A DNA stretch of 64,000 bases from Escherichia coli. GTDB lineage: Bacteria; Pseudomonadota; Gammaproteobacteria; Enterobacterales; Enterobacteriaceae. Each line of letters starts with the position of its first letter. Position 1 is the stretch's first letter. The stretch lies in assembly GCF_036507355.1 (NCBI RefSeq), contig NZ_AP027877.1, one strand, 5' to 3'. The position numbers were made by a program, and so were the translations under genes. Positions 37,063 through 37,078 of this stretch are shown one piece after another. A model generated the notes under the pieces. It worked only from the letters and a program-made list of their open reading frames with translations. It was not told the DNA's origin and searched no databases.

Positions 37063-37078
37063 GTGTAATCGATTACAC
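37063..37078. promoter_or_regulatory. GalR/GalS-type operator upstream of galP
   Basis: Perfect 16-bp palindrome GTGTAATCGATTACAC ~85 bp upstream of the galP start. Confidence 0.55.

Follow-up and report, generated by a model that had tools for sequence, protein, structure and literature searches.

The window analysed here, a stretch of 64,000 nucleotides from an Escherichia coli genome, carries galP on its minus strand and, upstream of it, metK, with a copy of the insertion sequence IS4 and the control elements of galP lying between the two genes (Table 1). The galR and galS genes lie outside the window. Between the inner end of IS4 and the galP ATG there is a spacer of 411 bp, which contains, from the IS4 side towards galP, a distal GalR/GalS operator, a proximal GalR/GalS operator, a site for the cAMP receptor protein (CRP) and an operator for NagC that overlaps the presumed -10 hexamer of the galP promoter, PgalP. 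The proximal operator, a perfect palindrome in this genome, is the subject of this report.

Table 1. Features of the galP-metK region, with positions counted from the first letter of the window.
Feature	Position	Strand	Basis or remark
galP CDS, galactose:H+ symporter, 464 aa, ATG at 36980	35586..36980	-	ORF, translation, and annotation of E. coli genomes at the matching position
NagC operator, cttaattcacaataaaaaataac	36997..37019	-	unchanged relative to K-12; overlaps the -10 hexamer and the start-site region
Putative -10 hexamer of PgalP, TATCTT	37017..37022	-	published -61.5 applied to window coordinates
CRP site, TGTGATTTGCTTCACA (predicted)	37044..37059	-	TGTGA-N6-TCACA consensus; identical to K-12
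Promoter-proximal GalR/GalS operator of galP (K-12 OI(galP) / BS2, centre about -61)	37063..37078	-	consensus and K-12 alignment
Base differing from K-12	37072	-	A on the + strand, T at operator position 7 in the galP sense; G in K-12
Distal GalR/GalS operator (K-12 OE(galP) / BS1, about -243)	37245..37260	-	one consensus mismatch
13-bp target-site duplication CAGCGCGAGGCTG, galP-side copy	37379..37391	.	part of the former metK terminator hairpin
IS4, 1426 bp; transposase ORF 37405-38733 (442 aa)	37392..38817	-	sequence, ORF, and annotation at the same junction
13-bp target-site duplication, metK-side copy	38818..38830	.	
metK, upstream gene, co-oriented with galP	38856..40010	-	terminator split by IS4

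An earlier note on this DNA had drawn attention to a perfect 16-bp palindrome at the proximal site, and the description is accurate: GTGTAATCGATTACAC, found on the minus strand in the galP sense, equals its own reverse complement, and the symmetry is in fact longer than had been claimed, as a flanking A (37062) and T (37079) stretch it to 18 bp (37062-37079). Symmetry of this kind is by itself no significant signal in 64 kb. The single perfect 16-bp palindrome observed in the window compares with a mean of 1.0 in 200 shuffles (sd 1.0, max 4), and palindromy was rejected as evidence of function on these counts. It is the consensus match and the conserved position of the site, and not its symmetry, that carry the identification. 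The sequence agrees, as had also been claimed, with the gal operator consensus, and does so at all 12 specified bases of the pattern GTGNAANCGNTTNCAC; it is the sole exact match in the window, for which about 0.004 would be expected by simple arithmetic (64000 x 4^-12). At one mismatch there is a single further site, the second galP operator, which lies 182 bp from the palindrome. Four more sites appear at two mismatches, giving a total of six that includes both galP operators, against 3.4 expected; these four other gal-like sites were rejected as lying within chance expectation. Promoter-like and terminator-like matches over the operator and CRP dyads were set aside as background level.

Alignment of the 411-bp spacer to E. 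coli K-12 MG1655 showed only three substitutions and one 13-bp indel, and placed the palindrome column for column on K-12 positions 3088186-3088201, with identity at 15 of the 16 bases. This K-12 segment is OI(galP), a GalR operator that ranks first both by position-weight-matrix score (25.1; Qian et al. 2016, PMC5110547) and by GalR ChIP-chip score in the MG1655 genome (115.4; PMC5110547). Parisutham et al. (2022, PMC9189660) placed the native sites of PgalP at -243.5 (BS1) and -61.5 (BS2), and BS2 was the highest-affinity GalR site among the four that they tested (PMC9189660). The GalR consensus has been described as a 16-bp hyphenated dyad, GTGNAANC.GNTTNCAC, in which mutations at positions 3, 5, 9, and 15 make the operator defective (PMC5110547); the window operator carries G3, A5, G9, and A15, the consensus bases at these mutation-sensitive positions. 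Measured from its centre (37070.5), the palindrome stands 90.5 bp upstream from the ATG of galP and 19 bp from the centre of the CRP site, both as in K-12.

The claim of a GalR/GalS operator upstream of galP is therefore upheld by the comparison with published operators, as the K-12 galP operators align here and not elsewhere. Its further description as an exact inverted repeat is correct for the window but does not extend to the K-12 reference operator, which is not perfectly palindromic. The consensus dyad, the critical bases, orthology to a bound site, a CRP-adjacent location in the gal regulon, and a second operator nearby are all found together. Judged from sequence comparison, the palindrome is very probably the promoter-proximal operator of galP, accommodating one dimer of GalR or of GalS, its paralog in the LacI family, with a symmetry that is near-neutral and a control region that IS4 has spared; binding by GalR or GalS and the repression of galP at this site would carry over from the K-12 allele. 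The operator as such is already known and experimentally characterised in K-12, and is encountered here with a rare, probably neutral single-base variant.

One might suppose instead that the palindrome is a chance or otherwise non-regulatory dyad (a random inverted repeat, or the ClaI-type ATCGAT site that arises at its centre), or the site of some other LacI-family regulator, and that the true galP operators lie elsewhere. About one perfect 16-bp palindrome is indeed expected per 64 kb, and a central AANCGNTT core is common to operators of the LacI family, which would suit another regulator. Set against this, however, are the match to all 12 specified GalR consensus bases, the exact alignment with the K-12 site at which GalR gives its strongest ChIP signal, and a placement with respect to CRP site and galP start that is kept in 69 species. 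Because the operator is orthologous to the K-12 site, a chance or non-regulatory origin is contradicted, and we consider it, or the site of a different regulator, exceedingly improbable.

The elements that surround the proximal operator, namely the CRP site, the NagC operator, and the distal gal operator, all match K-12. The distal operator reads CTGAAACCGATTACAC in the galP sense, is identical to OE(galP) of K-12 (3088004-3088019), and has its centre 182 bp from that of the proximal operator, again as in K-12; this spacing amounts to about 17.3 helical turns, with no obvious phasing for a simple loop. The sequence TGTGATTTGCTTCACA, 3 bp downstream of the proximal operator, is predicted to be a CRP site from its agreement with the consensus and from published evidence that PgalP depends on CRP. 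For NagC, the operator ahead of galP is known with the exact sequence cttaattcacaataaaaaataac (PMC3098098). Applying the published numbering of -61.5 for the operator puts the CRP site at -42.5, and not at the classical -41.5, with a transcription start at about 37009, whereas an operator at -60.5 would put CRP at -41.5 and the start at 37010; the start of PgalP would thus lie at about 37009/37010. Further upstream, between the metK terminator and the distal operator, a 13-bp segment that reads TACCTCACCGCGG in the galP sense is found beside a REP-like palindrome (window 37340-37352). The same segment occurs in strains JX21CE8 and DSM 103246 and is lacking in K-12.

The arrangement of these sites lends itself to a scheme of regulation transferred from the K-12 operator. 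Without D-galactose, a GalR or GalS dimer on the proximal operator would block CRP-dependent initiation, and the distal operator, together with NagC bound over the start site, may reinforce the repression. Galactose would then release the repressor, and cAMP-CRP would still be needed for transcription after that release. For a galP promoter fragment, cAMP and D-galactose have been found to be the two inputs of an AND gate (PMC4073488). At galE P1, GalR bound to OE at -60.5 contacts the alpha C-terminal domain of RNA polymerase and blocks the open complex (PMC3488240, PMC5110547). As the galP operator shares the position and the consensus of OE, repression at PgalP is probably likewise a contact inhibition of RNA polymerase exerted via the alpha C-terminal domain.

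The analogy with the gal operon is closest for the operator itself, which at galP takes the same position, and follows the same consensus, as the external operator OE at galETKM P1. It is less close for the partner operator, which at galE is OI, downstream at +53.5 and 113 bp off, whereas the partner at galP lies upstream, at about -243 and 182 bp off. The sequence of OE is GTGTAAACGATTCCAC, and CRP at galETKM P1 is centred at -41.5. Unlike galETKM P1, moreover, the galP promoter involves NagC, and NagC and GalR may repress it cooperatively.

Part of what sets the locus apart from that of K-12, which has no IS4 there, is the insertion sequence 313 bp upstream of the proximal operator. The element is an ordinary IS4 in every respect considered, its length of 1426 bp, its 13-bp target duplication, its 442-aa transposase, and its terminal inverted repeats (TAATGCCAGTCAGTTAAG and TAATGCCGATCAGTTAAG, matching at 16 of 18 positions) being all as known for IS4, with nothing unusual about them. 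Membership of this family thus follows from size, inverted repeats, target duplication, and a single DDE transposase ORF. Target duplications of IS4 measure 11-13 bp, and the insertion site presumably fits the AAA-N20-TTT target described for the element. The boundaries were confirmed by the empty site of E. coli DSM 103246, against which two alignment blocks overlap by exactly 13 bp, and an identical junction occurs in E. coli genomes in which it is annotated 'IS4-like element IS4 family transposase'.

The earlier note had placed the operator between the galP start and IS4 and had held that it was retained despite the insertion. Both points stand, as IS4 entered the metK terminator and ends 131 bp short of the distal operator; all known cis-elements of galP lie on the galP side of IS4, and the control region is intact. 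The terminator fared less well. In the empty site, the intrinsic terminator of metK has the form AAAGGCCAGC-CUCGC-GCUGGCCUUU followed by UUCUUUU (a 61-nt fold of -20.2 kcal/mol), and its 10-bp stem has been cut to a 4-bp remnant on the galP side. The junction on that side now presents an 11-bp hairpin formed by the IS4 end, the 4-bp remnant stem, and then a U-rich tract. Within IS4, just upstream of the transposase ATG (about 38736-38775, minus strand), there is also a strong hairpin (AAUCCGGAAACG...CGUUUCCGGAUU) followed by U7, which would shield the transposase gene from transcription running on out of metK and could take the place of the lost metK terminator. A simple terminator scan missed this internal hairpin, probably as an extension of the stem absorbs the run of T.

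The loss of the original terminator raises the question of whether the operator, though intact, is bypassed, with transcripts from IS4 or from metK running past the broken terminator and expressing galP without control by GalR and CRP. The common orientation of metK, the IS4 transposase gene, and galP, along with the reduction of the terminator stem from 10 bp to a 4-bp remnant, would be in keeping with such read-through. Yet the hairpin and U7 within IS4 should stop transcripts that come from metK, the galP-side junction keeps its own hairpin, remnant stem, and U-rich tract, and the transposase promoters of IS4 are weak, which again counts against a bypass. The persistence of the junction in 43 E. 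coli genomes of several serotypes argues, in addition, against a strongly deleterious effect. A bypass of this kind appears very unlikely.

The 43 genomes with the same IS4 junction were found among 5,426 complete E. coli genomes, and some of the 43 have no other IS4 copy; this recurrence points to a hot spot for insertion or else to an old polymorphism. In each of the best full-length IS4-bearing matches (H1-H5), 4 of 501 positions are unlike those of the window. One of the genomes with the junction, JX21CE8, was fetched and aligned, and it has G at operator position 7, where the window has T. Conversely, no IS4 was found between metK and galP in six sampled genomes that carry the T allele. 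A linkage of the T allele to IS4 is therefore unsupported and was rejected; since IS4 occurs together with G in JX21CE8, and the sampled T-allele genomes lack IS4, the insertion and the T allele are to be seen as independent events.

The T allele is the single base by which the operator departs from its K-12 counterpart. In the galP sense the K-12 operator reads GTGTAAGCGATTACAC, and the window differs from it by one substitution, G to T (alignment column 345), at position 7, which is an N in the consensus and is not among positions 3, 5, 9, and 15. As this change turns both half-sites into GTGTAATC, it is also what makes the dyad perfect. In DSM 103246, the closest relative, the + strand shows C at the counterpart of 37072, hence the G allele, and the local flanks of the window match those of this G-allele strain. 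The form GTGTAAGCGATTACAC is present in K-12 and in about 99% of complete E. coli genomes. A 60-mer around the T-allele operator was found exactly and at full length in 22 complete E. coli genomes, and the band at or above 99% identity held 25 of 5,399. By comparison, about 3,800 genomes contain the K-12 60-mer without a mismatch, and seven genomes of the one-mismatch class, a small sample of the roughly 1,600 lacking it, all kept G in the operator and had single changes in its flanks. The T allele is thus rare in complete E. coli genomes, at about 0.4%, a figure that is a lower bound in that T genomes with an additional flank change go uncounted.

Rare as it is, the T allele is not confined to a single clone. 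It is found on at least three distinct 4-kb haplotypes, which differ from each other at 21-59 sites and are represented by the window, by TR01, PI7, and MMC-J-0020, and by H1827/12 and E100341. A single clonal origin was rejected on this ground, and the spread over haplotypes points to recurrent mutation or to recombination. With regard to TR01 (L077), which is labelled 'O157:H7', the speA-endA region clusters with that of PI7 and MMC-J-0020, at 5 differences per 4 kb, whereas 30 differences separate TR01 from the O157:H7 strain PV15-279 and the accessions of the YggI and EndA proteins differ between the two. Either this region of TR01 is recombinant, or the lineage is not the one that the serotype label suggests.

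A wider view of position 7 is offered by the orthologous operators of other Enterobacterales. One genome per GTDB species was scanned with the pattern GTGNAANCGNTTNCAC-N3-TGTGA-N6-TCAC, which fixes 12 operator bases and the CRP half-sites, so that these are invariant by construction and diverged orthologs are missed. The operator-CRP pattern yielded 73 loci, 69 of them with a galP start 97-119 bp downstream of the first base of the operator. Among these 69 species, the four operator positions left free by the pattern behave very differently: position 4 is T in all 69, positions 10 and 13 are each A in 67, and position 7 is C in 46, G in 9, A in 9, and T in 5. Position 10, the promoter-proximal symmetry mate of position 7, is thus nearly constant while every base occurs at position 7. 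Constraint seems to act unequally on the two half-sites, and the central region of the operator would accordingly not be wholly unconstrained. The prevailing form in other Enterobacterales, GTGTAACCGATTACAC (46 of 69 species), shares with the window the GTGTAA-N-CGATTACAC frame, the 3-bp gap to CRP, and the distance of 97-119 bp to the galP start, and the window differs from it at position 7 only.

The exact perfect palindrome is also present in E. whittamii, in Escherichia sp. E1V33, and in a divergent 'E. coli', SCPM-O-B-8794. The matches of the species scan include no representative of E. coli sensu stricto, though the K-12 sequence fits the pattern. SCPM-O-B-8794 (L009) is titled Escherichia coli but is only 94.5% identical to the window, and it probably belongs to a cryptic Escherichia clade.

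Because position 7 takes all four bases in the orthologous galP operators of the Enterobacterales, we read the change from G to T as near-neutral, rather than as the making of a designed 'ideal' operator. Most likely position 7 is weakly constrained and the perfect symmetry is incidental. The 18 other GalR ChIP sites, counted by half-site, likewise show every base at position 7, with A in 19 cases, C in 8, G in 7, and T in 2. T is, however, the rarest base there (2 of 36), and the change may have an effect on affinity in either direction.

The contrary view would hold that the substitution is adaptive, in that an 'ideal' symmetric operator would be bound by GalR or GalS with higher affinity, giving tighter repression or a shifted preference between the two repressors, and that it might even offset read-through from IS4. 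Several observations lend themselves to such a view. In 67 of 69 species the half-site facing the promoter reads GTGTAATC, so that a T at position 7 reproduces the conserved half; at least three E. coli haplotypes carry the allele, and the T form is present in three divergent Escherichia lineages (L009, L046, and L053); GalR and GalS rank operator sequences differently (PMC9189660); and the intact metK terminator that stood upstream of the galP control region has been removed by IS4. Nevertheless, the allele has remained rare, at about 0.4% of complete E. coli genomes, and has not spread. A role in offsetting IS4 is at odds with the G of the IS4-bearing JX21CE8 and with the absence of IS4 from the sampled T-allele genomes, which leave the two events unlinked. 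Moreover, most Enterobacterales have C at position 7, and among other GalR sites no base is rarer than T at this position of the half-site. An adaptive origin thus seems unlikely, and the same low probability attaches to the fuller proposal that the change measurably alters repressor binding, arose repeatedly, and was fixed in some Escherichia lineages by retuning galactose (or glucose) uptake via GalP.

With the change taken as near-neutral, little is at stake at this locus, as the operator is of textbook level and the window adds to it a rare allele (about 0.4%) at the one freely varying position. The points added to what was known are that the palindrome alone is insignificant in 64 kb, and that IS4 struck the metK terminator while the galP control elements were spared. 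Should the T allele change the affinity for GalR or GalS, it would provide a natural 'symmetrised operator' with which the contributions of the half-sites could be approached in a LacI-family repressor, which is a narrow question.

Further observations concern the window beyond the galP-metK region. Its IS content could hint at a Shigella origin; its best matches among complete E. coli genomes are 99.1-99.4% identical. IS4 is not its sole insertion relative to DSM 103246, as a second one of about 1277 bp, with a 2-bp overlap at the junction, lies downstream of speB at about 44787-46063 and matches at 98.5% elements annotated 'IS110-like element IS621 family transposase'. The segment 1-15000 of the window is a variable island whose matches elsewhere are annotated as tyrosine integrases, a DUF927 protein, an AAA ATPase, and an 'ABC-three component system protein'. 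Coverage of window 1-25000 reaches at least 80% in one complete E. coli genome only, and the variable island may be a defence island adjoining speC and nupG.
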